From Paraphysomonas bandaiensis (Eukaryota > Protista > Chrysophyceae): DNA of 14,012 nt. The stretch lies in NCBI GenBank assembly GCA_965644295.1, contig CBFFRP010000098.1, positions 1-14,012 on the forward strand, in the 5' to 3' direction. Position 1 is the first letter of the stretch; every line of letters begins with the position of its first letter. The notes beneath the pieces were generated by a model. The model did no database searches. It was given only the letters and a program-made list of their open reading frames with translations, and was not told where the DNA came from. Shown one piece after another: positions 1 through 14,012 of this stretch. The translations under genes and the position numbers were made by a program.

Positions 1-352
1 ATGAGTGGGCGAAAATTATCTGCGGTGTTGAGTTCTGCAATATGATATGATATAATATATTGAAGTGAGTTAATAGTGTGCAATAGATGAAGTCAACTCA
101 TAGGTGTAACGGGTGATTATAGGTGCAAAGGAATTACATTCAGTTACTGATGTCTGACTATACTAGATATAGAACTGACTGATGAACATAGGATAAACAG
201 ATGTTTTATCAGATGTTACACGAATATGTAGTGAAGTGTTCAGAGTAATAGCTATAATTATTTCTTATTTGAAAGTGCACTGTGTTCAACACAGTAAGTT
301 AAGGTTTAAGTGTAGAGCAAAGTTAACTTCAGTGAAATGTCCAATTCTAAAA

Positions 353-446
353 TGCGGACTATGCAGAATGCGGCTCACATTAGTTTCCCAGAGAAATGTA
401 TCTCAGAACACCACGAAAAGGTGCGAGCCCGACATTGTTGAGGGCA
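353..446 (-). pseudogene. Remnant of an unknown coding family, paralogous to 6155-6261
   Basis: The reverse complement aligns with 6155-6261. The copies translate as ALNNVGLAPFRGVL and ALNKVGLAHFRGVL, with three synonymous third-position differences. Confidence 0.55.
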
Positions 447-749
447 TAAAGCATAAAGTACATTGCCAACATAATTTAGCGCTCTTGTAGCCACCACTGA
501 TAAACACCTGTGCCTTGAATCATCACATTTCTGTTTTACAGTTATATACCTATACAGTATGTTGACTGCGTATTAGTTTCGTTTTTACATGTATTTAACG
601 AATTATACACTTCTATCTTAGGGGAATATACATATTTCAACTCCCCCACTTATTCTGTAGAAATGATTATCGCTATAATACTGCAGCTCTATTTTTTTCT
701 TCTAAAACTAGCCATATAGGATAAGTGAATATGAAAACTTATTAAAGAT

Positions 750-1350
750 ACTGTGTACTCCAAACTCGCTGTAGGCGGTACTATTGATTTTATTCCACTT
801 CATTGGATATATACTCCTCTTCCAGTAGTTTGCTATCGTTCCAGCATGAGAGAACACAATGTACCCTACAGTATGGCACCAGCCCATCCAGAATCATTAA
901 CACATAGATCAACCTACTCCACTTTATACACTGCTATCCACTCTAGTATTTCAATAGTTGAATTGCTAACCTACAAGATGCGTACGTAGGCTTACTACAC
1001 TATCTCGTCAGCAATCCGACAGCATAGGCGAGGTATGGTTGCGTATGTAGTACTAAATACAAAATAATGATGCTATGGTATGAAATAAATGTTGATACCC
1101 ACTGTTCCTGTTCTGATGTAAGCTCCCGTTCTGCAGCTAATAGTTCCTGCGTATTTGGTGCTAATCTCTTGTTCTTCCTACTATTATGTCCAATGATTGG
1201 ATGAAATTTCCGAAATATTTTCTCCGCATAATATTTTGTGTGAGATCGTTTTCGAACCAATTCGCAGTAAGCCTTCATCTATTGGTAGGTACGTATAACA
1301 TATAGTCGTCTTCATCCCTAGATATAACAAAACGCAGAGCTCATGTCAAG
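750..1350 (-). mobile_element. Decayed Ty1/copia LTR retrotransposon remnant (RT C-terminal part and start of RNase H)
   Basis: The minus-strand ORF 1000..1278 contains YYAEKIFRKF and YHSII-ILYLVLHTQPYLAYAVGLLTR, matching the copia RT consensus Y.EKIL.KF and YRS.VG.L.YL...TRPDIAYAVG.LSR. Past the stop it reads CSKPTYASCRLAIQLLKY, then in shifted frames NDSGWAG (cf. SDADWAG) and GYIVFSHAGTIA (cf. GYVF...GGPISW). There are several stops and frameshifts, and the ends are approximate. Confidence 0.8.
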
Positions 1351-1743
1351 TTGATGAACGCAATAATATATTATAATATCAATCACTACACTCTAATCCT
1401 TTTACTACAGAGATGCAAATGTAGTTGGCGCCACCTCTTGCTTCTCCTCTAGCCTTATATTTTTGTCTATATATTCAAGTTTCATGAACATACATATCTT
1501 TCCAACGAATAAGTTTGACCCCAAATGGTCGACGAACAATTATCTTGAATGCTTCACTTCTCTTCGTCGCGTTTGGCCTTCATCTAGTCGTGTGTCTATT
1601 TAAGGAGAGTAATCCGTGTCCTGAGAACTATTTGGTTTTTAGGGATGTTCAACCTTGCAGTACCTTCACAAAACTCCTCTATAGTTTACATTGGCGTCTA
1701 TATAATTGCCCCATTCTGAGCGCGTACTTAGGTAGATTCGGAT

Positions 1744-1817
1744 GGGGGTCGGGTGGGTACCTAACTAATACTTGATTTAAGTCCCATACGTTATTTGCTA
1801 GCTACCTACTGATCCCA
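1744..1817. repeat. Small imperfect inverted repeat (arms about 27 bp)
   Basis: tgggggtcgggtgggtacctaactaata resembles the reverse complement of the right arm, tgggatcagtaggtagctagcaaata. Confidence 0.45.
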
Positions 1818-2567
1818 ACTAGCTACATCATTATCACATGGTATTCAGCGCTGAATATGCAGTGAGACCCCGGGTGGGGTAGTGCTGAACTAAGCAATGT
1901 GTACATAGATAGAGGTGAGCAATCGCAGCAGCACTCAGCCGCACCCACTAGGGTATTGCTAACCCGAGGTATTTACTCCGGGTGCAGCCACTATATGTGA
2001 ATAATAAGGAAATGTAAGAAAGAAGAAAGGAAAATAAGAAGAGGAATGTGCTTGTTAATAGCCTTACAATAGCTCAGGCACCCCCAAGCTCTTATAATTG
2101 GACACCTCCAACTACGTGTTAAGGTGTAAGGCACTCTAACAAAAACTGAACAGCAAGCAGAACACAAAATAACTCACAAAGAACCACTCATGTTCTACAA
2201 GCTATCTAGAAACACACAATAACATCTAGAACAATATTCTACAAAAGATTGTACAAGATTTGGTTGATTATGTGGACATATCAGTTTTCTGGAACACTCC
2301 CGTAGAATGCTATGAAGACCAACTCCAACCAACAGAGTCTCCAGCACACCAAAATGAGAATATTGTCCAATCATATGCTTGTACTCGACAATATACCGTC
2401 ACTGTACTATAGACCATACACAGATATACAACAGCACAATACTGTATACTCAGAATCATATACAGCATCATACAATCGTATATACAGAGGAGTACAAGGT
2501 CTCATACATCCCGCATACCAGAGTAGCATCCAGGAGTATACAGCAAATACAGTAAATACGGTAAATA

Positions 2568-2747
2568 CGGCATACGACAAAAACAACAGTTGAGAAGAGA
2601 CTGAAGATGATGATGCTCGTAACACTCATTGCAGATACATGCCAACGCTCCATAACCAGTAAGAGATGAATGATGACACTTGGCACACTAGTCAAGTCCA
2701 TAATGACAGACGTCTGACGCAAGCCACGGCTCCAAACATCATGAACA
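2568..2747 (-). pseudogene. Degenerate RING-finger-like coding fragment
   Basis: A minus frame not listed in the ORF track reads CS*CLEPWLASDVCHYGLD*CAKCHHSSLTGYGALACICNECYEHHHLQSLLNCCFCRMP. This gives CxxC...CxH...CxxC...CxxCR spacing with two in-frame stops. Confidence 0.45.
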
Positions 2748-3660
2748 CGAGAAGTTAGAGTCCACTGCGCTCCACAGGAATATGAAGACCACACAGAGAG
2801 TACTAATGGCCTCATGACAAGATGAGTGGACCCTCAGGTGATACAATGTGTACATATACCATACATACGTCATATTCATGTCATGTATACATGCAGATCG
2901 TGCTTATGACAAGACTTGGATCTTATACAAGCACGTGTACACCATACCCTATAGTATGCAAGTGATAAGAGTGTGATAATGTATATAGATGGTGACACAC
3001 ATACATATAGAGATATTGGAAGGTATAGATGAACATGTATACACTACATTGATATCTAATTCTTTCTATCTGCAGCTAGAGAAGAATTAACACCAACACA
3101 GCATAGAGTGTTATATGTGTACAGTGTGATAATGGATAAGGTGCATAATGTATGTCATATGTGTATAGTGTGAGTGATGTTGGTGATATAGTAATAAGTG
3201 TGAGTGCATACAATGCAATATCAATACAATGATGACATGCAGTGCAAGGCATAGTGTTGTGTACATGCAAGCATACATATAATAATATACACAATATGTA
3301 TCACAAGCAAGAGGTCTCACTCTTACTAGCGTAGCCCATATAAGTATCCAACCATAGCCATAGTACTCACCAGTAGATAGACATCCAAATCTCACTCACA
3401 GGAGTATAGTTGAACGCCACAGCGTTACAAGGGGCCGCACGCAGTAATTAGTTACGCTGTCAATATGGGGCAATAATACTTCTACATTGTTACGTTGGAG
3501 GTATTTTGGCTAACCTCCTCCCCGGAGTGTTGCTGTCGTCTTTGTAGCTCCAGTAGAAACTATCCGATCTTTACTATATTAGTATAATATAAAACAACAT
3601 CATCAGGTACTGTTGTAGGTACTCCTCCTAGCTGCATAATTCTTTAACCAATCATATAGC

Positions 3661-3923
3661 TAAGTGAATTGATCTACCTATTGGGAGCTTTAGGTTGCAA
3701 AATACTTGGGAGCTTGTATTTTTGCTGTGATAAGTTTAGATAGTCATTCTGTTCTATGAACAACTTGGTTTTTAACGCCTAAGATCACTGAAAAGAGAGC
3801 GTGTGTATGCTTGTTTATGGAAACAAGAAAACAGAATGACTATCTAAACTTATCACGAAATACAAGCTTCCAAGTATTTTGCATTCTTAAACCCCCAATA
3901 GGCGGATCGGATCAATTAACTTA
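3661..3923. mobile_element. Foldback/MITE-like element with imperfect terminal inverted repeats of about 93 bp
   Basis: The left arm 3661-3753 is the reverse complement of the right arm 3830-3923, including a perfect core gtgataagtttagatagtcattctgtt / aacagaatgactatctaaacttatcac. Weaker pairing extends to about 3646/3941. No coding capacity. Confidence 0.75.
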
Positions 3924-5727
3924 CCGATATATCGATTAGTTCGAGATAAAGAGTAAGAAGAAGGCAAGACAGACACCCCCCTCTACCATATCGGCATCCG
4001 TTGTATATCAATATACTTCTTGCTCACTGCGTTTGCTTTGAGTGATTAATAACGAGAATGGTTGTACCTCTGTGCCTTGGGGCGACACACAAAGTAGTTC
4101 TCGTAGTAGCGGAGTATCGTACAGAAATGCGACTGGGTGCATTGTGTATGAAGCGAGAGGACCACGTACTGTCATCCATGTTATAGGCTACAGTTTCGAC
4201 ATCATCTATATCAAAAGTGACTATCAAGCGATGTATACCTGGATACAAGAACTGCTGTGGCTTCGAGGGTGTTGGTCGAGCGAGGATTACGGTAAGCGAA
4301 CCCACAATACATGGACAGTCAAAGTACGTGCAGCATGACACTTACTCCTAATACCATAATTGAAATTAAATATCATTGAAATAGCAGAGCACGTAAATCC
4401 AAGTGGTACGTTCAAAAGTGCAACACTGCATTATGTTAGAACCGATGATCATACTGTGGACACCTTTGCCAAATTATTGCGTGGTGTTATATACGAGAAG
4501 CATAAAAATGTGTCAACGTGAGGATTAGAAAAACTCTAGGGTAGTCATGAGAGAAAACTCAATTTAACGACACATAAGATTGTGAAGAGTTGACGATGGT
4601 GAAGCTAACTGCAATGCTGGAGTCATACGGTTACCAGTTTGTCCTATTCCGTTTTCGTGGTTGCGTATCTGTCAGTTATATCTTGTGGTATGAAGGATCT
4701 GTCTACAACTTTGAATTGGGAGAGTGTGTTGAGTTTTACTAACTTGTAAAGCAATTAAAAGCTGTAAATTATATCTCTTAAGAATTCAGTTTTTAAAAAC
4801 AGTATTATATAAATTTAATGAATTGATATATATTAGGTTAGACAAATGGATATATAGAAATGGCTGTATAAAATCGTGTCTACTTAAGATAGTAAAATAT
4901 TGGTTAGTAACAGTTACATTATTAATACAATGAATGATGAGAAATGATTATCACAAATTTTATTTTATTGAAGGTAGATTGTATTTTAAGTTCAGTTACT
5001 CACTTCTAGTTTTCAACGTCAAATTCTGTTACAGTGCCTAGTGTTTTTATCACAGATAACATATTAGTTAATAGAGACTATTTGAGAGCTGTGTGATTTC
5101 AGTTTCTTACTTCTATGAGTAAAAATTACAAATATTATTATTATTCTAGTGGCGTATTATTTGCTCCATTCTGAGCGTTTCTACTATTAATTAAAAATTA
5201 AAACTAGCATGGTTTACAGCCATGCTCTCCACGACATGACGCTCGTCAAATTCTACTGGCCGAGTACTTCAAGCTATTTTATAATCATTAGGTTGCATCT
5301 ATTGACTAGTTAAAGTTAATCAAACTAGATAGATTATGTTATTAGAATTGTATACACAATTGTGTTGTCAAGTAAAACTCATCAACAACATGATATAATT
5401 TGTTCATGTCATCTACTGATCAACTTCCGTATCTTGTACAGTCGTGGTATAATACTTCAGTTTCACATATATAGCTATATAGTATGTTTGACTACGTATT
5501 ACAGTTTCTCACATTGTATTCACCGTATTCCATAGAACTATCTTAGAGAGACATACGTATTCCAATACTAACGTGCGTATTCCAACAGCATCTTCATTTA
5601 TGTGTTAAAATATAACTGCGCGGGCTTGCTCATCATTTCTATAAATATATACATATACAAAGATGTGGCGTTTTATTCAAATGGATTTATTACTGGTTCA
5701 GCAATATGGGGAAGTAGAGTATTTATC

Positions 5728-5862
5728 TTAATGGCCTAAAGCACTCAACACAGGGGCAACAGCAGAGAGATCAGCAGCAGCCTCAGCCTTTGCCTTAAGA
5801 GCGGCCCTGGCCTTCTTCTCGGCGTAGTAAGCCTGCTCCTTGGCTTTTCTCTGAGCCTCAAT
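5728..5862 (-). pseudogene. RPL13A: Orphan 3' fragment of 60S ribosomal protein L13a (uL13)
   Basis: A GC-rich island whose minus frame reads IEAQRKAKEQAYYAEKKARAALKAKAEAAADLSAVAPVLSALGH*, matching the eukaryotic uL13 C-terminal helix (LE..RK.K...YY..KK). AATAAA motifs follow in the putative 3' UTR. No upstream part of uL13 is recognisable in the window. Confidence 0.8.
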
Positions 5863-5960
5863 TGATACAATTGAAATTATAACATTACTAACAGAAGTTG
5901 CCATTATTTGCTAAGGTTTTCTGTGGTTCTCAATTGATGCGATTGAAATTATAACATTAC
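5857..5960 (+). repeat. 32-bp direct repeat pair at the breakpoint of the RPL13A fragment
   Basis: ctcaattgatacaattgaaattataacattac (5857-5888) and ctcaattgatgcgattgaaattataacattac (5929-5960). Confidence 0.8.
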
Positions 5961-6154
5961 ACGATAAAGAACCTAAGTTGTATTCGGTGTGCTCAACACC
6001 AATCATTTACTTCTATAATGTACGAACCACACTCTCAGTAGTCGTACCCTGTATAGTCACTATCTTATACTTCAGTTTCATACTACAATATAATATAATA
6101 TATTAATTACATACATATAGATATAACTTTTGATCCTTGCATCTCACATAATAC

Positions 6155-6261
6155 TGCCCTCAACAAAGTTGGACTTGCACATTTTCGTGGTGTTCTGGAG
6201 GATATAAGTACCGGAGAGATTCTCTCTGGGAAACTAACATGAGTCGCAAACATAGTCAGCA
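6155..6261 (+). pseudogene. Remnant of an unknown coding family, paralogous to 353-446
   Basis: Reads ALNKVGLAHFRGVLEDISTGEILSGKLT*VA and aligns with the reverse complement of 353-446. Confidence 0.55.
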
Positions 6262-6489
6262 GATAGATATTGTTCTGCCCACTCATAGCCGAATGCTTGT
6301 GTGGTACAAGGGACACCAATATAAGTGTCACTTGTGTAGACGTCTTTGGACCCTGACGAATAAACAGGCATCCGGAAATGGGCCCACCACCTCAACGGCA
6401 TCCGGGACAGGGCCCACCTGAAGGGTAACCGGGGTATTGGGCTGCCTGCTGAAGTCAAGCATACGGGATGTTCACCTTAAGGACTCAGA

Positions 6490-6766
6490 ACGGAAGTGGT
6501 TGCACCTTGGTGCTTGCGGCAACGCACAAGCCGCTTCTGTAGGACAATAGCGTTTGTATTAATTAGTTACGGGTGGAGGTCTCACTAGGTTGACTAGCAT
6601 TCATTCATCTACTAGCTACTAAACTACGGAAGTGGTCGCACCTTGGTGCTTGCGGCGACGCACAAGCAGATTCTGTAGCGTTAAATAGTAGGATAAAAGA
6701 GTTTGTATTGATTAAGTTACGGGTAGAGGTCTAAATAGCATGTCTAGCATTCCTCTAGCCACTAAA
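6490..6766 (+). repeat. Diverged tandem repeat, 2 x about 136 bp, each unit starting with a conserved branched hairpin
   Basis: Units start at 6490 and 6626 with acggaagtggtYgcaccttggtgcttgcggcRacgcacaagc...ttctgtag...gtttgtatt...agttacgggtRgaggtct...ctagcattc...ctagcYactaaa. Confidence 0.85.
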
Positions 6767-7044
6767 TTGGTGCAGGTTTTCAACGACTATTGCTAGAAAA
6801 TAAGACATTCAATATATATATACATATTACTGCACTCAATTGCAAGCATATAGAATCTTCAGATCTCAACACTTTCAATTGCTCGAATATATAGCAGAAC
6901 TCAACAGACCGCTATAGGGGTATACTGGTTTACTTTGCTCACTAACTAAACCGATGTTGCTACATAGCACTTATAACTAGACTTTCAATATATATATAAG
7001 ATATTAATTTATTATGATGCATCTCATACGCGATACTGGTTCGG

Positions 7045-9303
7045 TTAAACTTCTGAACTTATTTTCAAACTTTCACCAAAACTAAAGGGCATATCCTCGT
7101 CACTATTATCGCTATCCTCATCGTCGCCATCGCCATCATGATCATTGCCATTTCGTTCGTCTCCTGTGAAGAAGAACTCGTATTTCAAATCATCACTAAG
7201 TTGAACGCCATATGCATCTGAAAGTGCATTACGAAGTGATTCAAATGAAAAAAAAATTTGTGATTTGCACAGCTCTCTAATTTGTTTCGCACACCGACCT
7301 GCGGCTGATTGACTCATATACTCCCGAAGAACTGATGTTAAAATTGATAATCTACTAGAATGAGGGTCAACGACGGAGCAAGCACAAGGATGGAACGAAA
7401 GACAAGAATGAAAATGTTTCAGTTCTTTGCGTGACATTATCACACACCTATCATTAGGAAGTCGGACTTTTCTTTTTCCATAGGTTGCTAAAGCAGAAAA
7501 TATACAAAAAACGACTAACATACCATTCACCGATGGTTTTGGCATCAGTTTAATGTACTTCGAAAGAGCACCAGTTGTCAGCGGCTTTGCTTCACGTTTG
7601 CGCTGATCCAGAAATAAGACAGTTCTACCGCAAACCGTATGTAATACGAAATAAAGGTCCACGCCTTTGCCCCCTGAGCCATTTACAACAATATGGCACA
7701 TACTAGATTCGAACAAATTAACTGTTCGAAGAAGATTCTCACTTTCTGGAATAGAGTTCAAATTAGATTCTTCGGCCAACTCATTGTCCGCGAAAAACAC
7801 CTCCGCTGGTCTTAGTTGAACAACCACTGGACGAATAGTACTCAAATTTGTACGTGCGCCAGGAAAAAGATCGTTGATAGATATTGTCTCTCGACCAAGT
7901 ACTAGCAATGCATTTATACGAAGACAGTGGAAATGCGCACCAAACAACTCCCATTTGTACCAGGGCACATCGGATATTGACGCCAACTCATGAATAATTC
8001 TGAGAGAGTCCATGAAACGAATTCTGCATAGAGATTGCGAAATGTCATCTCTATGATCGCACGCTAAACATTGCAAAATTCCTACATACGGAATAGTTAC
8101 GTACTCTGAATCACCACAAGAGGTAAATTCTACTAGACCACGGTCAGCCATTTGTTGCCATGTTGGTTTTGACACTTCGGGACTTCGTACGCTATGGCTT
8201 ACTAATGAGATTCCAGGCGAATCTGCGGGGGAAACAGAGGTCCTACTCACACAATAGGCTACCAGGGTGAGAAGAGAATTACCATCTAACAAAAGTCTCC
8301 ATTGATTAGAATGTTCGTTGGAGATATCATTGCGAATCTGTTTAATCCTATTGGCTGTGGGAAACTTGTCAAGCAGATGACACTCATTTTGAATTCTCCG
8401 ACTAAAATTTACAACACTTCTTGGAATATTACCTAGTGTGAATAAGCATTGCTGAAACACTTCACTGCGAATGGTTTCAGGATATATGTTCGACGCGATG
8501 CCTGCGTAGTTGCGCTGAAATGGGATATTTATCTTGGTACATAAATCTCGAGAAGATGAAGTACTACTAATTCGCTCCCATTCAGTACCAGCGAACATGG
8601 TATACAAGTGAACATTATGATTTTTGTTTAAATAAAGAGTTGCCTCAAAGAGAAGTGTCATCAAGCGGTCTAACTTATCTATTCCGTCTTCTTCAAGTCC
8701 TGTAATACTCTGAAATTCGTCAATGCCAAGAAAAAAAGAAATCGGATTACTTTCATCAAATGTATCTCTTTTGGAGCTCAACACTGCAAGTATTGCCTCC
8801 GAGATAGTGAGTCCATCGTAAATATTAGAATTTTCTAGAAGATTCATGTGCTGTCGAAACTCGGAGCCGTCAAAAAAGTGGCGTTGTAGAATCCTCCATG
8901 CAAAAGTTTTTTCAATAGCACAGACATTATCAACAGAACACAATCCATGACCATTAAAATATAAAACTAATAAACCAGTGCGGTTAGTTGATGATATTCC
9001 CATCATATCAAACATAGATAACCATTCTTCAAGTAGTCTGGTCTTTCCAACCCCAGATATACCCACACAAACAGGATGTTTATAATCTGTTCGATTAGTT
9101 GAATTATTAGAAAAACTTTTTTGACGAAGTTTCCATATTTCAGTAATTCTTTTAAGGATATCATAACGTCCATATAGAGGTATCTGACGATCCTCATTAC
9201 TGTGACAATATATAAATGGATTGCTCTCAATTCCACCTAATTGAAAGATTTCATTCATCAGATTTGTATGATAAGATTTTATTTCTTGTATTTGATATGT
9301 CAT
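7045..9303 (-). CDS. Crinkler (CR)-type effector/toxin: P-loop NTPase + PD-(D/E)xK restriction-endonuclease-fold domain + C-terminal helix-hairpin-helix, acidic tail
   Basis: Intact, intronless 752-aa ORF. Walker A GISGVGKT (near 9063), Walker B FFLGIDEFQ (near 8720), MFAGT and LGNIPR. Then WYKWELFGAHFHCLR, VVNGSGGKGVD and LFLDQRK (QxK-type REase motifs), followed by a ComEA-like HhH (VDPHSS...AKQIRELCKSQIFFSFESL). This NTPase+REase+HhH order is typical of CRN-family proteins. Confidence 0.8.
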   Translation of the reverse strand: MTYQIQEIKSYHTNLMNEIFQLGGIESNPFIYCHSNEDRQIPLYGRYDILKRITEIWKLRQKSFSNNSTNRTDYKHPVCVGISGVGKTRLLEEWLSMFDMMGISSTNRTGLLVLYFNGHGLCSVDNVCAIEKTFAWRILQRHFFDGSEFRQHMNLLENSNIYDGLTISEAILAVLSSKRDTFDESNPISFFLGIDEFQSITGLEEDGIDKLDRLMTLLFEATLYLNKNHNVHLYTMFAGTEWERISSTSSSRDLCTKINIPFQRNYAGIASNIYPETIRSEVFQQCLFTLGNIPRSVVNFSRRIQNECHLLDKFPTANRIKQIRNDISNEHSNQWRLLLDGNSLLTLVAYCVSRTSVSPADSPGISLVSHSVRSPEVSKPTWQQMADRGLVEFTSCGDSEYVTIPYVGILQCLACDHRDDISQSLCRIRFMDSLRIIHELASISDVPWYKWELFGAHFHCLRINALLVLGRETISINDLFPGARTNLSTIRPVVVQLRPAEVFFADNELAEESNLNSIPESENLLRTVNLFESSMCHIVVNGSGGKGVDLYFVLHTVCGRTVLFLDQRKREAKPLTTGALSKYIKLMPKPSVNGMLVVFCIFSALATYGKRKVRLPNDRCVIMSRKELKHFHSCLSFHPCACSVVDPHSSRLSILTSVLREYMSQSAAGRCAKQIRELCKSQIFFSFESLRNALSDAYGVQLSDDLKYEFFFTGDERNGNDHDGDGDDEDSDNSDEDMPFSFGESLKISSEV

Positions 9304-9347
9304 TTTAATTGAGGTTTATATTATTCTACTGTATGTTTAATGATACT

Positions 9348-9631
9348 CATCTCTACTGGATTATTAAGGCAGATATCTAGATATGTACACAGTACTATAA
9401 CCCTAACCCTAATAGTACGACGTTCCTACGGGAAGTGGTTGGTGTGCAAATCGATTTTACGGTCATTGTTTTTTTCATTATTTTTTAAGTGAAAAGTGGT
9501 TTTTTACGAAAAAAAACGACCAAAAATTATTGATGAACTAAATCAGTGCCACCAAGCAAAATCGATTTGCACAACCACTTCCAGTACTGTACATATCTAG
9601 ATATGTGCCTGTTAATCAGCCAGTAGAGATG
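9348..9631. mobile_element. Foldback/MITE-like element with TIRs of about 74 bp; the left arm is interrupted by a telomere-repeat-containing insert
   Basis: The reverse complement of 9558-9631 (catctctactggctgattaacaggcacatatctagatatgtacagtactggaagtggttgtgcaaatcgatttt) matches 9348-9458 apart from an insert of about 34 bp (9397-9430). The termini are CA...TG, and CT flanks both sides (possible 2-bp TSD). Confidence 0.75.
9398..9412 (+). repeat. Short telomeric repeat TAACCCTAACCCTAA (TTAGGG type)
   Basis: 2.5 units closed by a 6-bp stem, gtacta (9392-9397) / tagtac (9413-9418). Confidence 0.6.
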
Positions 9632-9726
9632 CTGTGACAACGTCCCGGAATGCTGTGACACCAGTATGGTGCAGTTTGAATATATATATATTTGCCGGAC
9701 ATGTCAAACGTGTAGTTGACAATTGG

Positions 9727-10116
9727 ATGATCTCAAACGAATCGTTTTCACGCGACTGTGAACTTCGTTCGTCCAAAATTCAGTATACGCGGTCGGCTTA
9801 TTTCAACAAGTGGTTGATGCGTATTCTCGGTACAAATATTCACTGTACACATAAACAACAAAACCTTCGAGGACTCAACCGATTCGATCTATACTTTTGT
9901 GCACATCCCAAACATAGGGATTGGTTGTCCTACAACGAGATAGGAATGGTGATTGATCGATTCAATTTGATCGACCGTGTATTCACACATAACAAACCAC
10001 AGCGACGGAAAAACTTCTTTACGTATAGTGTCGTATTACAGTGTATAGTGGATGATTTGAATCTGATGGCGAAGATCCCTTTTCCAATACACACTCTCGA
10101 TTTATCCAATAAATGA
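9727..10116 (+). CDS. Compact VLTF3-like (poxvirus A2 family) viral late transcription factor; possibly truncated by a TGA (the frame stays open to TAG at 10174-10176)
   Basis: YTRSAYFNKWL (cf. YKR.NHFNEWL), LSYNEIGMVIDRFNLIDRVF (cf. LS.E.E..L...F..IQ.PF) and RRKNFFTYSVVLQCIVDDLNL (cf. RKNFLSYSYVLYK...LL). The first ATG is at 9727; the ORF track start at 9634 is a non-ATG codon next to the foldback element. Confidence 0.75.
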   Translation: MISNESFSRDCELRSSKIQYTRSAYFNKWLMRILGTNIHCTHKQQNLRGLNRFDLYFCAHPKHRDWLSYNEIGMVIDRFNLIDRVFTHNKPQRRKNFFTYSVVLQCIVDDLNLMAKIPFPIHTLDLSNK

Positions 10117-10187
10117 ACCCATGCAAACCAGGTCGCTTTAATTACAGCGATATTAAATGGGAAAATCCCTGATTAGTCATGGGTTTT

Positions 10188-10354
10188 TCATTGGTTTTTC
10201 TTGGTAAGATTGGATGCCACTTTAATTCCGATTGCGTGTTGCTTCTTGGACACCACCTTACCGTGCTTGTTTTTCATTAAATTTGATTTTTAAGACCACC
10301 CGCCGTCCTATCTGCGGTTCCGTGCCAAACTTGTAATTTTGTTCCAACAGTCAT
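10188..10354 (-). pseudogene. DVNP: DVNP (dinoflagellate/viral nucleoprotein), 55 aa once a 1-nt homopolymer deletion is repaired
   Basis: From the ATG at 10354: MTVGTKLQVWHGTADRTAGGLK. Adding one base to the T5 run at 10287-10291 continues it as KSNLMKNKHGKVVSKKQHAIGIKVASNLTKKNQ*. This matches the viral DVNP signature GS..QVWHG.A..T.GGL.K.DL.KNK.G.IVSKK.H. Absent from the ORF track. Confidence 0.9.
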
Positions 10355-10432
10355 TTTATTATATTTTTACAATAAGTCAAGTAAAAATGAGCTTACTCGT
10401 ATATATTATTTGCATATTATATAGTTTATCAA

Positions 10433-10699
10433 ATGACAACAACTATGTCCGATTCTATCAAGAAAAAGCGGCGGGAGTACATGCGGCGATACCATGCAAA
10501 GTACCCTGATCGACTCAAGGTGATACAGCGGGAGTCTAATCGGAAATATAACGAAAAACAGAAAGCTCTATTGGGTGTCGAAAAGTTTAATGAAAATCGC
10601 CGTAGATGGATGAGAAACCATTATGCTCGAAGGAAAAAGGAGATTGCAGAGTTTCGAGAATACAAAAAAACTATGTTGCGTAAAAAAACTGACGATTGA
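10433..10699 (+). CDS. Small Lys/Arg-rich helical protein, putative DNA-binding protein of the viral element
   Basis: 88 aa with an ATG start, divergent from DVNP across a 78-bp AT-rich spacer. Internal repeat RREYMRRYHAK / RRRWMRNHYAR, a pattern common in small proteins of eukaryotic DNA viruses and transposons. Confidence 0.6.
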   Translation: MTTTMSDSIKKKRREYMRRYHAKYPDRLKVIQRESNRKYNEKQKALLGVEKFNENRRRWMRNHYARRKKEIAEFREYKKTMLRKKTDD

Positions 10700-10706
10700 T
10701 TTGTGC

Positions 10707-11009
10707 TAAATTTTATACTTTTTGTAAACAATTGTGGGTGATCCTCCTCCACCCATTTATATATTTTTCATAATTATATAAAAAAATGAATTTCATTTGA
10801 GAGCCATTTATTTCCATTCTCAAAAGTTGCAGTGCATGTTGGATGGGTATAAATTTTATACTTTTTGTAAACAATCGTGTGTGATCCTCCTCCACTCATT
10901 TATATATTTTTCATAATTATATAAAAAAATGAATTTCATTTGAGAGCCATTTATTTCCATTCTCAAAAGTTGCAATGCATGTTGGATGGGTATAAATTTT
11001 ATACTTTTG
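10707..11009 (+). repeat. 143-bp tandem repeat (two near-identical copies plus the start of a third), candidate replication origin or regulatory region
   Basis: Units start at 10707, 10850 and 10993 and differ by only a few substitutions. Unit junctions form the palindrome GTATAAA-T-TTTATAC, and each unit has a very AT-rich core. Confidence 0.9.
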
Positions 11010-11088
11010 ATAAAATCATTTGAGTTCCATTTTCATTTTTAATCACAACACACAACTGTTTGACCCCCCACCATCATTTCTTACAAAG

Positions 11089-14012
11089 ATGTCGTCCAGC
11101 AGCAATCAGAAACAGAAGTGTCCGCATTGTCAAAAAATGATTAAAGACGTTCGAGGTCATATTATGCGGCAGCACCCGGGTTTCACCGCAACGGTCAATT
11201 CTACTGAATTGCCATCAAATATTAAGACCACATCAAATCCATGGGAACTAGGTTACTTGCCATCCCCTCGTACGGACATCGGTAGTGATGAAACCATGTG
11301 GTCACCCCATAACCCATTTGGGTTAACTATGCCGAAAACTGTTCCATCAATTTACGTAGGCCGAGGAAAAATAAAAACATTTGAGATAACCGATCGTTCG
11401 TTATTGAGGGGTATCATTAATTTGAGTTCGAGCAACCAAGAGAAATCGTCGTCAAGCGAATATGTACGACAAGAGACAATTGCACAGCTTGCACAGCGAA
11501 TGTACGATCTCCAAGAAACGGATAATGAAAATCCCGAGCTCGGTCGTGTCAAAACTTCGTACAAACACGCCATACATGAATTTGGTCGAATCATTGAAAT
11601 GTTATCGGCAAGTTTGTCAACAGTAAAACGATCTTACCGACACACATTATGCCGGATAATCTATGTAGACTTCGATTTTGTTTGTTGTATGCCCACCATA
11701 ATGTTGGCATTTGCGGCGCGATACCAAATCAAATGTCCGAGATTGCGAGCATATTGTGAAAATCCCAAGAAACTACGTGTCGAAATCGCACGCCATCACT
11801 TTCCAGCTATGTGTGAAGAAAAAACTACAGTTGAAATATTGAAAATGTATAATGACACGGCAAAATCGCTTCCCATTCGTCTGGCGTTCGGGGGAACCTA
11901 TCGGCAATGGCGTGAAGATTTTGAAATTGATAAATCTATTCGTGAGATGTCATTTGTGAATGATCTTCAACGTGAATTGAATCAACTCATGACATTGATA
12001 TATAACAACAACCCTCATATTCGAAAGGCATATGCCGAGCTTCGTCCCGAAAAAACTAAGTCCCAATTGAAACGATCAATCAATTCTTTATTTTTTAGTA
12101 GCATTGAAAAGGTGGTACAAGAAGATGCGACGATGTTTCTTTATCACGCATATCCGACGATTGAACGTGGAAGTATTGTGCCATGCCAAGATGGAATGAT
12201 GCTCCGTGTCAATGATGTTCGCGACGATATGCTCCAACGGGTGAATGAATACCTGGAGCTAAAGTATGGATACGGGCTCACTCTGATTGATAAACCTTTT
12301 GACGAAGCCATGGACGACATTCCCCGAGATGCGAGTATCAATGCCGTACCTGCGCCGAATATGACTGAAGAATTGAAACGATATTTCGATGTCGACACTG
12401 GTGACATCAAAATCATAACTGAAGATTCAAAGTATCTTTCTCAAGAGGGTACTCCATTTGAGGACGACATTTTTGATGATTCGAAATACCTCATTCTTAG
12501 TTCATATATGGGTACTGGGAAATCAACTGCGATGCGGAGACTGATTGATCATATGTTTAGCGATGAATTAGAACTTGTATGGGAGAAGGAAAAACAGGTG
12601 TATCGACGAAGGAATGATGATAGCAACTATAAGTCGCGTGGTGTTTACTGCAATGAACCACCACGTAGGAGCATTTTACAAGTATCACCGAGGCGGTTGT
12701 TTACACATCATTGCGAATCTTGCAATCACTTTGATAGTTACCTCTCGATTGAACGTGGTCCCAACGATTGTGAAACATTTATTTGTCAAGTGGAATCGTT
12801 GCTAGCTAAAACGAGTAACATCACATACAAATGTATCCTTCTCGATGAAATTGAGGAAATCTTGGCTCAGTTTTCAAGTCCGACGATGAAACAACATATT
12901 GATACTTGGAATTTATTGGTAAATCATATGCAAGGGGCGGATAAAGTCATCATTGCGGATGCATATATCACCCAACGAACCATTTCATTTGTAAATTCGG
13001 TGGCGGGTTCGTTGAGTGGTGTCACCATGATCCGAAATACAACATTGCCAAGTAATCAAACGGCAATCATAGTAAAGGATGATATCATGAATGAAGTATT
13101 CCTTCATAACTTGAGTCAGGATAAACGGATATATGCCGTGTTTTCTACAAAAACTCGAATGAAATCGGTGAATTCTATGATAGCCAAACACTTCAAAGAT
13201 AAAAAAGTACTTGTTTACAAGGGGGGTCAAGGGCGCGAAATGAAAGAGTCCGTATTTAATATAAACACGACGTGGGCGGAAGTGGATATAGTTCTCACAA
13301 CCCCCGCTTTAACCGTGGGCAATAGCTATTCACCAGACGACAAATCCTTTTGGTTTGATTGCACGTTTGCGTTTAATTTTGATAGAAGTGCCTGCGTGCG
13401 AACTGCAAACCAAATGATGTGGCGGAACCGACACACCAAAGAGAACAAGATATATGTATCGTTCCAGGAAAGTAAACAAATTCGTTTCAAAGGTAGTAAG
13501 CCGGATGAGCTATTGCATGAGTTATTTGAGTCACGTCGCCACGCGGATGAAAAACAATCTAAAATACAATCTATTCGGCGGTACTGTGAAAAGTGTGCAA
13601 AAGAGGCGTACGATGCGGGGGACTATGTGACGGGCAATCAGTTTACCAGTGTTTTTATGTTTTCCGGAAGCGATGAATGCTCTAATGCACCAGTTGCCTT
13701 ATACGACAAACGCTCCTTTATACATATTACGAGACCACTTTGTCAAATATGACATATAGAGCCATGTATCACGAGTACCTTAAAAGGGCCGGTTATGCTA
13801 TTCGGCCATATGATGGGAAGGAACTGTGTAAACAGAAAACAGAAAAAGAAGAGAGCACTGCGTATTCTATGACACCTTCTGTGCGAAATTGTGATATTTA
13901 TTGCAAAATGATACAATTGCGGAATAAAGACAACGCGACGGGTTTCGAATTGATGCAGATCAAAAAATATCAATTTGATCAAAGTACGAGTAAATGTCGA
14001 GCCGCAGAGCAT
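11089..14012 (+). CDS. Viral replication protein: C2H2 zinc finger + PolA-family TVpol polymerase/primase + UL9-like (origin-binding) SF2 helicase; frameshifted near 13702, 3'-partial
   Basis: ATG at 11089. Zinc finger CPHCQKMIKDVRGHIMRQH. TVpol motifs: FGR...SLSTVKRSYRHTL, YVDFDFVCCMPTIM (motif A), AKSLPIRLAFGG (B), IVPCQDGMML (C). Helicase motifs: SYMGTGKS (near 12511), VSPRR, CQVESL, LLDEIEEILAQFSSPTM, IIADA, TTPALTVGNSY, QMMWRNR. A second frame is open from 13704 to the window end (RQTLLYTYYETTLSN...YLKRAGY...ATGFELMQIKKYQF). Confidence 0.85.

Follow-up and report, generated by a model that had tools for sequence, protein, structure and literature searches.

The origin of giant viruses is a question on which their small relatives have a bearing. 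Zephyrviruses (VC123/VC126, ~25 kb) have, according to the accessible part of their description, a TV-Pol among their replicases and VLTF3 in ~30% of two clusters, and no host is reported for them there (10.64898/2026.06.19.733378). Mriyaviruses (Yaraviridae, 'Gamadviridae') are presented, in the text available, as small and likely nuclear relatives of the nucleocytoplasmic large DNA viruses (NCLDVs) (10.1101/2024.02.29.582850). The locus reported here lies in a 14,012-nt stretch of a contig from Paraphysomonas bandaiensis (CBFFRP010000098.1), called the window throughout. Its viral tract (9634-14012, ~4.4 kb) reaches the right edge of the window and holds the remains of genes for a VLTF3-like late transcription factor, for a DVNP and for a replicase in which a TVpol polymerase is fused to a UL9-like helicase, together with a basic 88-aa open reading frame (ORF) and a tandem repeat (Table 1). 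The segment 9636-14012 is a decayed endogenous viral fragment, fixed in the genome of a eukaryotic host, likely a marine microbe; a probability of about one half is given to its source being a small or mid-sized NCLDV-like virus, of Zephyrvirus or mriyavirus grade, equipped with a virophage-type polymerase-helicase.

Zephyrviruses and the window share a TV-Pol-type replicase together with VLTF3, a gene pair which is not proof of kinship. They differ in that the TV-Pol of the former is a PolA-SF3 (SF, helicase superfamily), and in that the capsid defining the group is absent from the window; the accessible part of the Zephyrvirus report mentions neither a DVNP nor an endogenous example (10.64898/2026.06.19.733378). 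Mriyaviruses also carry VLTF3, and some of them a UL9-like SF2 helicase, but, as far as described in the available text, they have no DNA polymerase, their UL9-like helicase is fused to an AEP primase, and an HUH endonuclease is present in all (10.1101/2024.02.29.582850). Compared with the class Mriyaviricetes, the window shares VLTF3, in a divergent form scoring below the Pfam cut-off, and departs in having a DNA polymerase of its own; a search for the terms DVNP, PolA and TVpol in two supplements of the same mriyavirus paper returned 0 matches. Ariadnaviruses are reported, in the accessible text, to retain VLTF3 and to lose PolB, and SmDNAV has an AEP-UL9 (10.64898/2026.08.29.747986).

The TVpol/AEP-helicase replicases of virophages and Polinton-like viruses (PLVs), of the Sputnik V13 family (PMC2579912, available in part), resemble that of the window in polymerase family, fold, domain order, a small basic ORF upstream and swapping of helicases. 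Unlike the window, none of 295 surveyed TVpol/UL9 loci (overlapping, and mostly partial genomes) contains VLTF3 or DVNP, and the window pairs polymerase and helicase halves from different clades. Giant viruses and giant endogenous viral elements typically have VLTF3 and DVNP, TVpol-fold proteins are found among them (1019 and 1054 aa), and endogenous copies decay, whereas the VLTF3 of the window is compact and scores far lower in Pfam than the sampled copies, and no PolB, RNA polymerase or usual neighbours are found in its 4.4 kb. The accessible parts of four further sources (10.1101/2022.07.28.501842, PMC12721341, PMC10120064 and PMC11502894) contain nothing on this gene set, and no description of the full VLTF3-DVNP-TVpol-UL9 set was found in the literature consulted, the coverage of subscription papers being thin. 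A first-pass annotation, made from the sequence alone, had suggested a possibly undescribed lineage: the combination of genes is unrecorded, but its parts are largely precedented, as both TV-Pol/VLTF3 and PolA-SF2 pairings have already been reported.

Table 1. Features of the viral tract and of its left border, in window coordinates
Feature	Position	Strand	Remarks
Inverted-repeat (fold-back) element	9349-9632		nested arms 9367-9389/9588-9610 and 9438-9458/9558-9578
Telomere-like hexamer repeat, 2.5 units	9398-9412	+	in a 34-base insertion of the left arm; 0/200 shuffles match
VLTF3-like late transcription factor pseudogene	9636-10176	+	Pfam PF04947, 18.3 bits, under the cut-off of 25
Virus-type DVNP pseudogene	10188-10354	-	PF19060, 29.6 bits, E 9.6e-7; frameshift near 10,290
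Basic 88-aa ORF, intact	10433-10699	+	divergent from DVNP across 78 AT-rich bases
Tandem repeat, AT-rich, with short GC hairpin	10707-11008		143 bp x 2.1, 97%, TRF score 576
Replicase gene	11089 to beyond 14012	+	TVpol N-terminal, UL9-like helicase C-terminal
TVpol (family A) polymerase domain	11089-12348	+	CxxC/HxxxH zinc-finger-like N-terminus; AlphaFold model, catalytic residues
UL9-like superfamily 2 helicase half	12409-14012, runs off the window	+	PF02399 (Herpes_ori_bp), E 1.1e-11

A family A fold is predicted for the polymerase half of the replicase, and the catalytic residues are in place. For residues 86-420, AlphaFold gave, from 69 sequences, a model of pLDDT 94.6, whose top PDB matches are all family A polymerases, the best being the Klenow fragment (E 4.7e-7); residues D194/D196, K259 and D368 are kept across 18 fusions. 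The top viral matches in BFVD include proteins of Zamilon and of Qinghai Lake virophage, as well as a Pyramimonas orientalis virus protein of 1019 aa, named "replication origin-binding protein" (A0A7M3UP97, TM 0.74), and a 1054-aa Catovirus protein (A0A1V0S8M8). In the helicase half, Walker A and Walker B motifs are found at residues 475 and 584, and the top PDB sequence matches are UL9 chains. Both halves of the TVpol-UL9 call made in the first-pass annotation are thereby upheld. The gene is interrupted by a frameshift near 13,700, recognized from protein P0037, whose match at 13701-13796 (E 4.5e-5) lies in a different frame.

The classic TVpol architecture is a fusion to an SF3/D5-like helicase; here the partner is a UL9-like SF2 helicase. 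This architecture was seen in 16 of the best 150 of 2239 library matches, which do not exceed ~40% identity to the window replicase, with the exception of the near-identical 77-aa P0021. IMG/VR and JGI contigs yielded no close replicase relatives, the matches among INPHARED phages were two weak ones to the helicase, and in the Atlas the TVpol part falls in unnamed clusters, with DNA_pol_A as nearest named family (0.82). Trees were built for the two halves separately, with sampling centred on the query in both cases. Among 87 dereplicated TVpol domains (from 202; IQ-TREE, quick mode) the window is placed in a 100%-supported clade of 37 rows, which contains no other UL9 fusion; its other members carry SF3, ResIII-type or no detected helicase. 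Among 166 helicases (FastTree) its position, weakly supported locally, is within a clade where AEP-UL9 proteins abound and outside the giant-virus UL9 clade, and TVpol-UL9 fusions are scattered across the tree. The nearest relatives of both halves are virophage/PLV proteins. The closest relatives of one half are not those of the other, so that, as far as these sequences indicate, an independent domain swap is the likely origin of the fusion. Domain swapping, with two PolA-SF2 fusions, is described in the accessible text on polisuviruses (10.64898/2026.10.13.758929).

The genomic surroundings of the replicase relatives are mostly those of small elements. The best 80 of 88 loci with TVpol kin lie on contigs of 5-30 kb; an A32 ATPase cluster is found in 45 of them and a Sputnik-type capsid cluster in 6. 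The nearest helicase loci (L081-L092 and L130) are contigs of 5-28 kb, at least 7 of which share genes with the TVpol loci; Pfam detected a Sputnik-type capsid, a penton and an ATPase in L083, and an A32 ATPase in L081 and L092. TVpol-UL9 itself is present in the virophage L350, and also, as a 1484-aa replicase, in L351, a capsid-less contig of 15.6 kb with mirrored terminal genes/terminal inverted repeats, which corresponds to a transpoviron-like replicon with a family A polymerase. VLTF3 or DVNP was found in none of 8 family loci examined (of 50). An ORF of 115-117 aa, followed by TVpol-SF3, lies inside two large contigs, L287 (719 kb; 9609-12400) and L304 (361 kb; 9600-12481), in the latter among ribonucleotide reductase (RNR) and capping-enzyme genes, and possibly represents a two-gene mobile module in giant viruses. 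Since kin are found both in small contigs and in these 361- and 719-kb ones, the TVpol module is of small-virus type, yet moves into giant viruses. TVpol had earlier been taken as a mark against a giant virus; this argument fails, given the TVpol-fold proteins of Pyramimonas orientalis virus, of Catovirus and of the two large contigs.

The best guide to the VLTF3 pseudogene is P0164, an intact relative of 216 aa, 81% identical, encoded on two metagenome contigs (ENA). Compared with it (tblastn, two frames), the copy in the window lacks 37 residues at the N-terminus, shifts frame near 9,700 and meets a premature stop at 10114-10116. P0164 itself reaches 22 bits, again under the 25 bits set by Pfam for Pox_VLTF3 (PF04947). 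Canonical giant-virus VLTF3 proteins, represented by a small sample of 9 genes among 13 motif matches, are 316-498 aa long, and the 4 scanned with Pfam score 102-174 bits; the best of the sampled sequences is 23% identical to P0164. They adjoin the RNR small chain, DUF5772 or A32, none of which is found next to the VLTF3 of the window, so that, with reference to these 9 genes, a full-length conserved VLTF3 in its usual gene block is not what the window contains. An hhalign match of 90% to canonical VLTF3s is partly circular, because the templates were picked by the same shared motif. The predicted structure of P0164 is poor (pLDDT 41.5); VLTF3 proteins are ranked 1, 3 and 6 by Foldseek, none of them at E<=0.001. 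By its sequence, the gene is VLTF3-like, compact and divergent; since it is also short in its intact form, low-scoring and at best 23% identical, its source virus is distant from the sampled giant viruses. No further close relatives were found in IMG/VR or JGI contigs, and protein searches returned P0164 alone; one of the searches for replicase and VLTF3 kin gave two 15-residue zinc-finger matches and nothing else. A weak VLTF3 match in the TVpol locus L405 was rejected as a coiled coil. An 11-base direct duplication, with copies 21 bases apart, is located at 9630-9661, exactly at the truncation point of VLTF3.

DVNP is the protein that took over from histones in dinoflagellates. With a profile made from 120 viral DVNPs, matches were obtained in two frames of the window, by which the frameshift listed in Table 1 is recognized, and the C-terminal piece alone exceeds the cut-off of the PF19060 core. 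The pseudogene is 69% identical to giant-virus DVNPs over 26 aa and is convergent with VLTF3, the two stop codons being 11 bases apart. A motif scan provided 120 DVNP loci of ~270 estimated, with flanking DNA for 80. Common neighbours in this sample are topoisomerase II, PCNA and P8 (clusters in 50, 35 and 31 loci), together with the NCLDV capsid; topoisomerase II, PCNA and P8 do not accompany the DVNP of the window. In the accessible text of a published survey, DVNP is reported in 528 of 1817 marine giant-virus genomes (29%) and in the virions of a giant virus (PMC11953307). The attribution of VLTF3 and DVNP to giant-virus-type families is retained, with a sub-threshold score for the former.

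The exact sequence of the 88-aa protein is also recorded under the source mmetsp, presumably a set of marine microbial eukaryote transcriptomes; this record hints at transcription. Basic ORFs of 84-124 aa are found in 31 of the 80 TVpol loci, most of them at no more than 350 bases upstream of TVpol. Compared with this 31-member family, the 88-aa ORF scores 8.4 bits, a value reached by none of 500 shuffles (best shuffle, 8.1), and may be said to resemble weakly the small ORFs just upstream of PLV TVpol genes. The 143-bp tandem repeat is a candidate origin or promoter. Relatives lend little support to the origin reading, as long-period tandems within 700 bases of the replicase occur in 10 of 278 loci (3 upstream and 8 downstream, one having both). 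In L092, a PLV with an rve integrase, tandem arrays of 114 and 142 bp (4051-4463 and 7953-8602) flank an AEP-UL9 gene, in a layout similar to that of the window. The initial description of four intronless genes and a tandem repeat within 4.4 kb is thus correct for position, packing and lack of introns; three of the genes are broken.

In order to evaluate whether the tract derives from one genome, the codons of VLTF3 and DVNP (226 together) were compared with 315 codon models. The best fit was obtained with the window replicase, whereas the host ORF ranked 59. In control comparisons, genes ranked the replicase of their own genome first in 30 of 242 cases, foreign genes ranked the window replicase first in 8 of 1394, and host chunks ranked it between 12 and 104 of 245. 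The observed/expected ratio of CpG is 1.06-1.50 across the four viral genes and 1.26 in the whole viral part, versus 0.69 in the host at 1-7000. No junction, repeat or composition step was seen across the 78 bases between DVNP and the 88-aa ORF. As the VLTF3 and DVNP codons fit the window replicase best, a single source genome, or long co-residence, is favoured by these compositional data, which cannot separate a small from a giant virus.

The left side of the window is eukaryotic host DNA, marked by deep repeat pile-ups and by a stray piece of the C-terminus of ribosomal protein uL13, surrounded by repeats (5731-5859, minus strand; 8 of 8 weak matches are uL13), which could be of use in placing the host. 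Between 6085 and 7020, and at other places left of 7000, contig depth exceeds that of unique DNA thousands of times. The first-pass annotation had described copia and miniature inverted-repeat element debris here: the pile-ups confirm repeats left of 7000, but no copia or retroelement match was given by Pfam in 15 frames from 197-5910, and the fold-back element at 9349-9632 shows no pile-up. Fragments at 1000-1300 (minus strand), which we took to be copia reverse transcriptase/RNase H-like, received no support from Pfam.

The stretch is wholly or partly present in 20 of 24 listed runs, from 13 studies, under four organism labels and as marine/seawater metagenomes. At the locus, 32 contig pieces of about 40,000 were listed, from four runs including X1, X3, X5 and X8. 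Single contigs cover 9134-10783 in X1 (0 differences) and in X5 (1 gap), the latter being another sample, study and organism label; contigs of X3 and X8 cover 9501-10168 and 9488-10214. Depth in X1 is 35.5 left of the tandem repeat, 31.5-41.7 right of it and 35.6-44.7 in unique host contigs; the corresponding values for X5 are 82.9, 83.5-85.3 and 87-95. The junction between host and virus is real. Since no listed contig bridges 10783-10979, within the tandem repeat, it is the window assembly that joins the replicase to the three genes on its left. On the right, X1 and X3 contigs end 33 and 29 bases beyond 14012, whereas an X5 contig of 1207 bases agrees with 12903-13293 over 375 bases before diverging near 13,290; past this point X5 has no cover, which alone proves nothing. 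As the X5 contig departs from the window there, the right side of the element likely differs between isolates. At 11365-11393 the X1 and X5 contigs break and P0021 (77 aa, 99%) ends, and depth about doubles in the bin 11233-11700 in the four runs; a second copy or allele of the 5' part of the replicase is likely present in the host.

The small or mid-sized source is favoured by the small contigs on which TVpol and best helicase kin reside, by the clade in which the TVpol domain is placed, by a non-canonical VLTF3 without the RNR small chain, DUF5772 and A32, and by the precedent of the Zephyrviruses. Several results weigh against it. No capsid, ATPase, VLTF2, HUH or integrase gene was found in the window, and neither a penton gene nor terminal repeats occur in 9634-14012; as the window also lacks a right end of the element, 'small' and 'integrating', the terms of the first-pass annotation, stand as conjectures; the synteny that the first-pass annotation proposed to look for elsewhere was not recovered, neither in the TVpol/UL9 loci, although most of these are partial genomes, nor in the 80 flanked DVNP loci, none of which has TVpol or UL9 beside DVNP; DVNP was sampled in giant-virus-type settings only; and TVpol genes also lie inside giant viruses. 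To the same side belong the missing contig across 10783-10979, the rank of 40 out of 315 given to the replicase by DVNP alone (58 codons), the density of breaks (at least 3 in 0.7 kb of VLTF3/DVNP, versus 1 in 2.9 kb of replicase), and the fact that a shared host may bring the codon use of different viruses together. In the viral part, the octamer of mimivirus early promoters was not found. A divergent, PolB-replicating giant virus, which carried the small ORF and the TVpol-helicase module as a long-resident accessory and of which the host kept this piece, is a real possibility, less likely than the small virus but nearly its equal. It agrees with how often marine giant viruses carry DVNP, with the 1019-aa protein matching the TVpol model, and with the small ORF and TVpol-SF3 in the 361- and 719-kb contigs; long residence would also level codon use. 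It is less easily reconciled with VLTF3, a core gene, being here far shorter and more divergent, and in other company, than in the sampled copies, with a DVNP deprived of its common neighbours, and with a helicase placed outside the giant-virus UL9 clade.

The affinities of the genes change between DVNP and the 88-aa ORF, and breaks are denser to the left, as expected if a giant-virus piece (VLTF3, DVNP) stood next to one of virophage, PLV or transpoviron-like kind (the 88-aa ORF, the repeat and the replicase), nested before capture or separately inserted. TVpol-UL9 is known in L350 and in the capsid-less L351, and tandem integration and replicase mobility are described in the accessible text of a recent source (10.64898/2026.10.13.758929). 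Two such elements are, nevertheless, improbable: the 78 bases at the supposed boundary show no junction, repeat or composition step, and the codon fit to the window replicase ranks first, while the replicases of its relatives have a median GC of 29%, only 41 of 244 reaching 39%. An artefact of assembly, by which unrelated pieces were joined at 9350-9630 or over the tandem repeat, would account for the lack of a bridging contig, and X1 may be the source of the window itself; given the single contigs over 9134-10783 in X1 and X5, the X3 and X8 contigs spanning the VLTF3 junction, and contig depths that match each other left and right of the tandem, as well as those of unique host contigs, it is very hard to credit. 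The chimera at 9350-9630, which the first-pass annotation had named as a possible refutation, is not borne out.

If the source was a small NCLDV-like virus, its UL9-like helicase would bind and unwind the origin, possibly the 143-bp repeat just upstream; priming and copying of DNA, as proposed for the family by Iyer et al. (PMC2579912, available in part), would fall to the TVpol domain fused to it, with no PolB required. Late transcription would be under the direction of VLTF3 and use a borrowed RNA polymerase, either the nuclear one of the host or that of a helper giant virus, and DVNP would condense the genome inside the particle. The further step, that the locus is the fossil of a new lineage with a genome below ~50 kb, DVNP packing, minimal late control by VLTF3 and its own fusion of a family A polymerase to an origin-binding helicase, is offered tentatively. 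Such a virus would be the first small one to have DVNP, and also the first of Zephyrvirus grade that is endogenous and assigned to a host, P0164 marking a close intact relative in a metagenome; DVNP would then extend to small nucleus-visiting viruses, plausible gene donors. If the fragment comes from a giant virus, it would record a deeply divergent lineage and another independent polymerase-helicase swap. The working cassette proposed initially, with its own replicase, chromatin protein and late factor, gives way in either case to a pseudogenised remnant: with breaks in three of its four genes and the 88-aa ORF alone left intact, the present locus is likely unable to replicate. Direct experiments are limited, as the locus is a dead fragment.

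The fold-back element which abuts the truncated VLTF3 has a depth close to that of unique DNA and is likely the remnant of a small host transposon, a viral end being the alternative. The telomere-like insert in its left arm is possibly a repair scar. An intact intronless ORF of 752 aa with a P-loop (7045-9303, minus strand) starts 46 bases from this element; no Pfam or NCBIfam family was assigned to it, and the likeness to Crinkler-type NTPase-nuclease proteins that we presume for it is backed by no family match. Diverged copies of it are seen in the sequencing runs.

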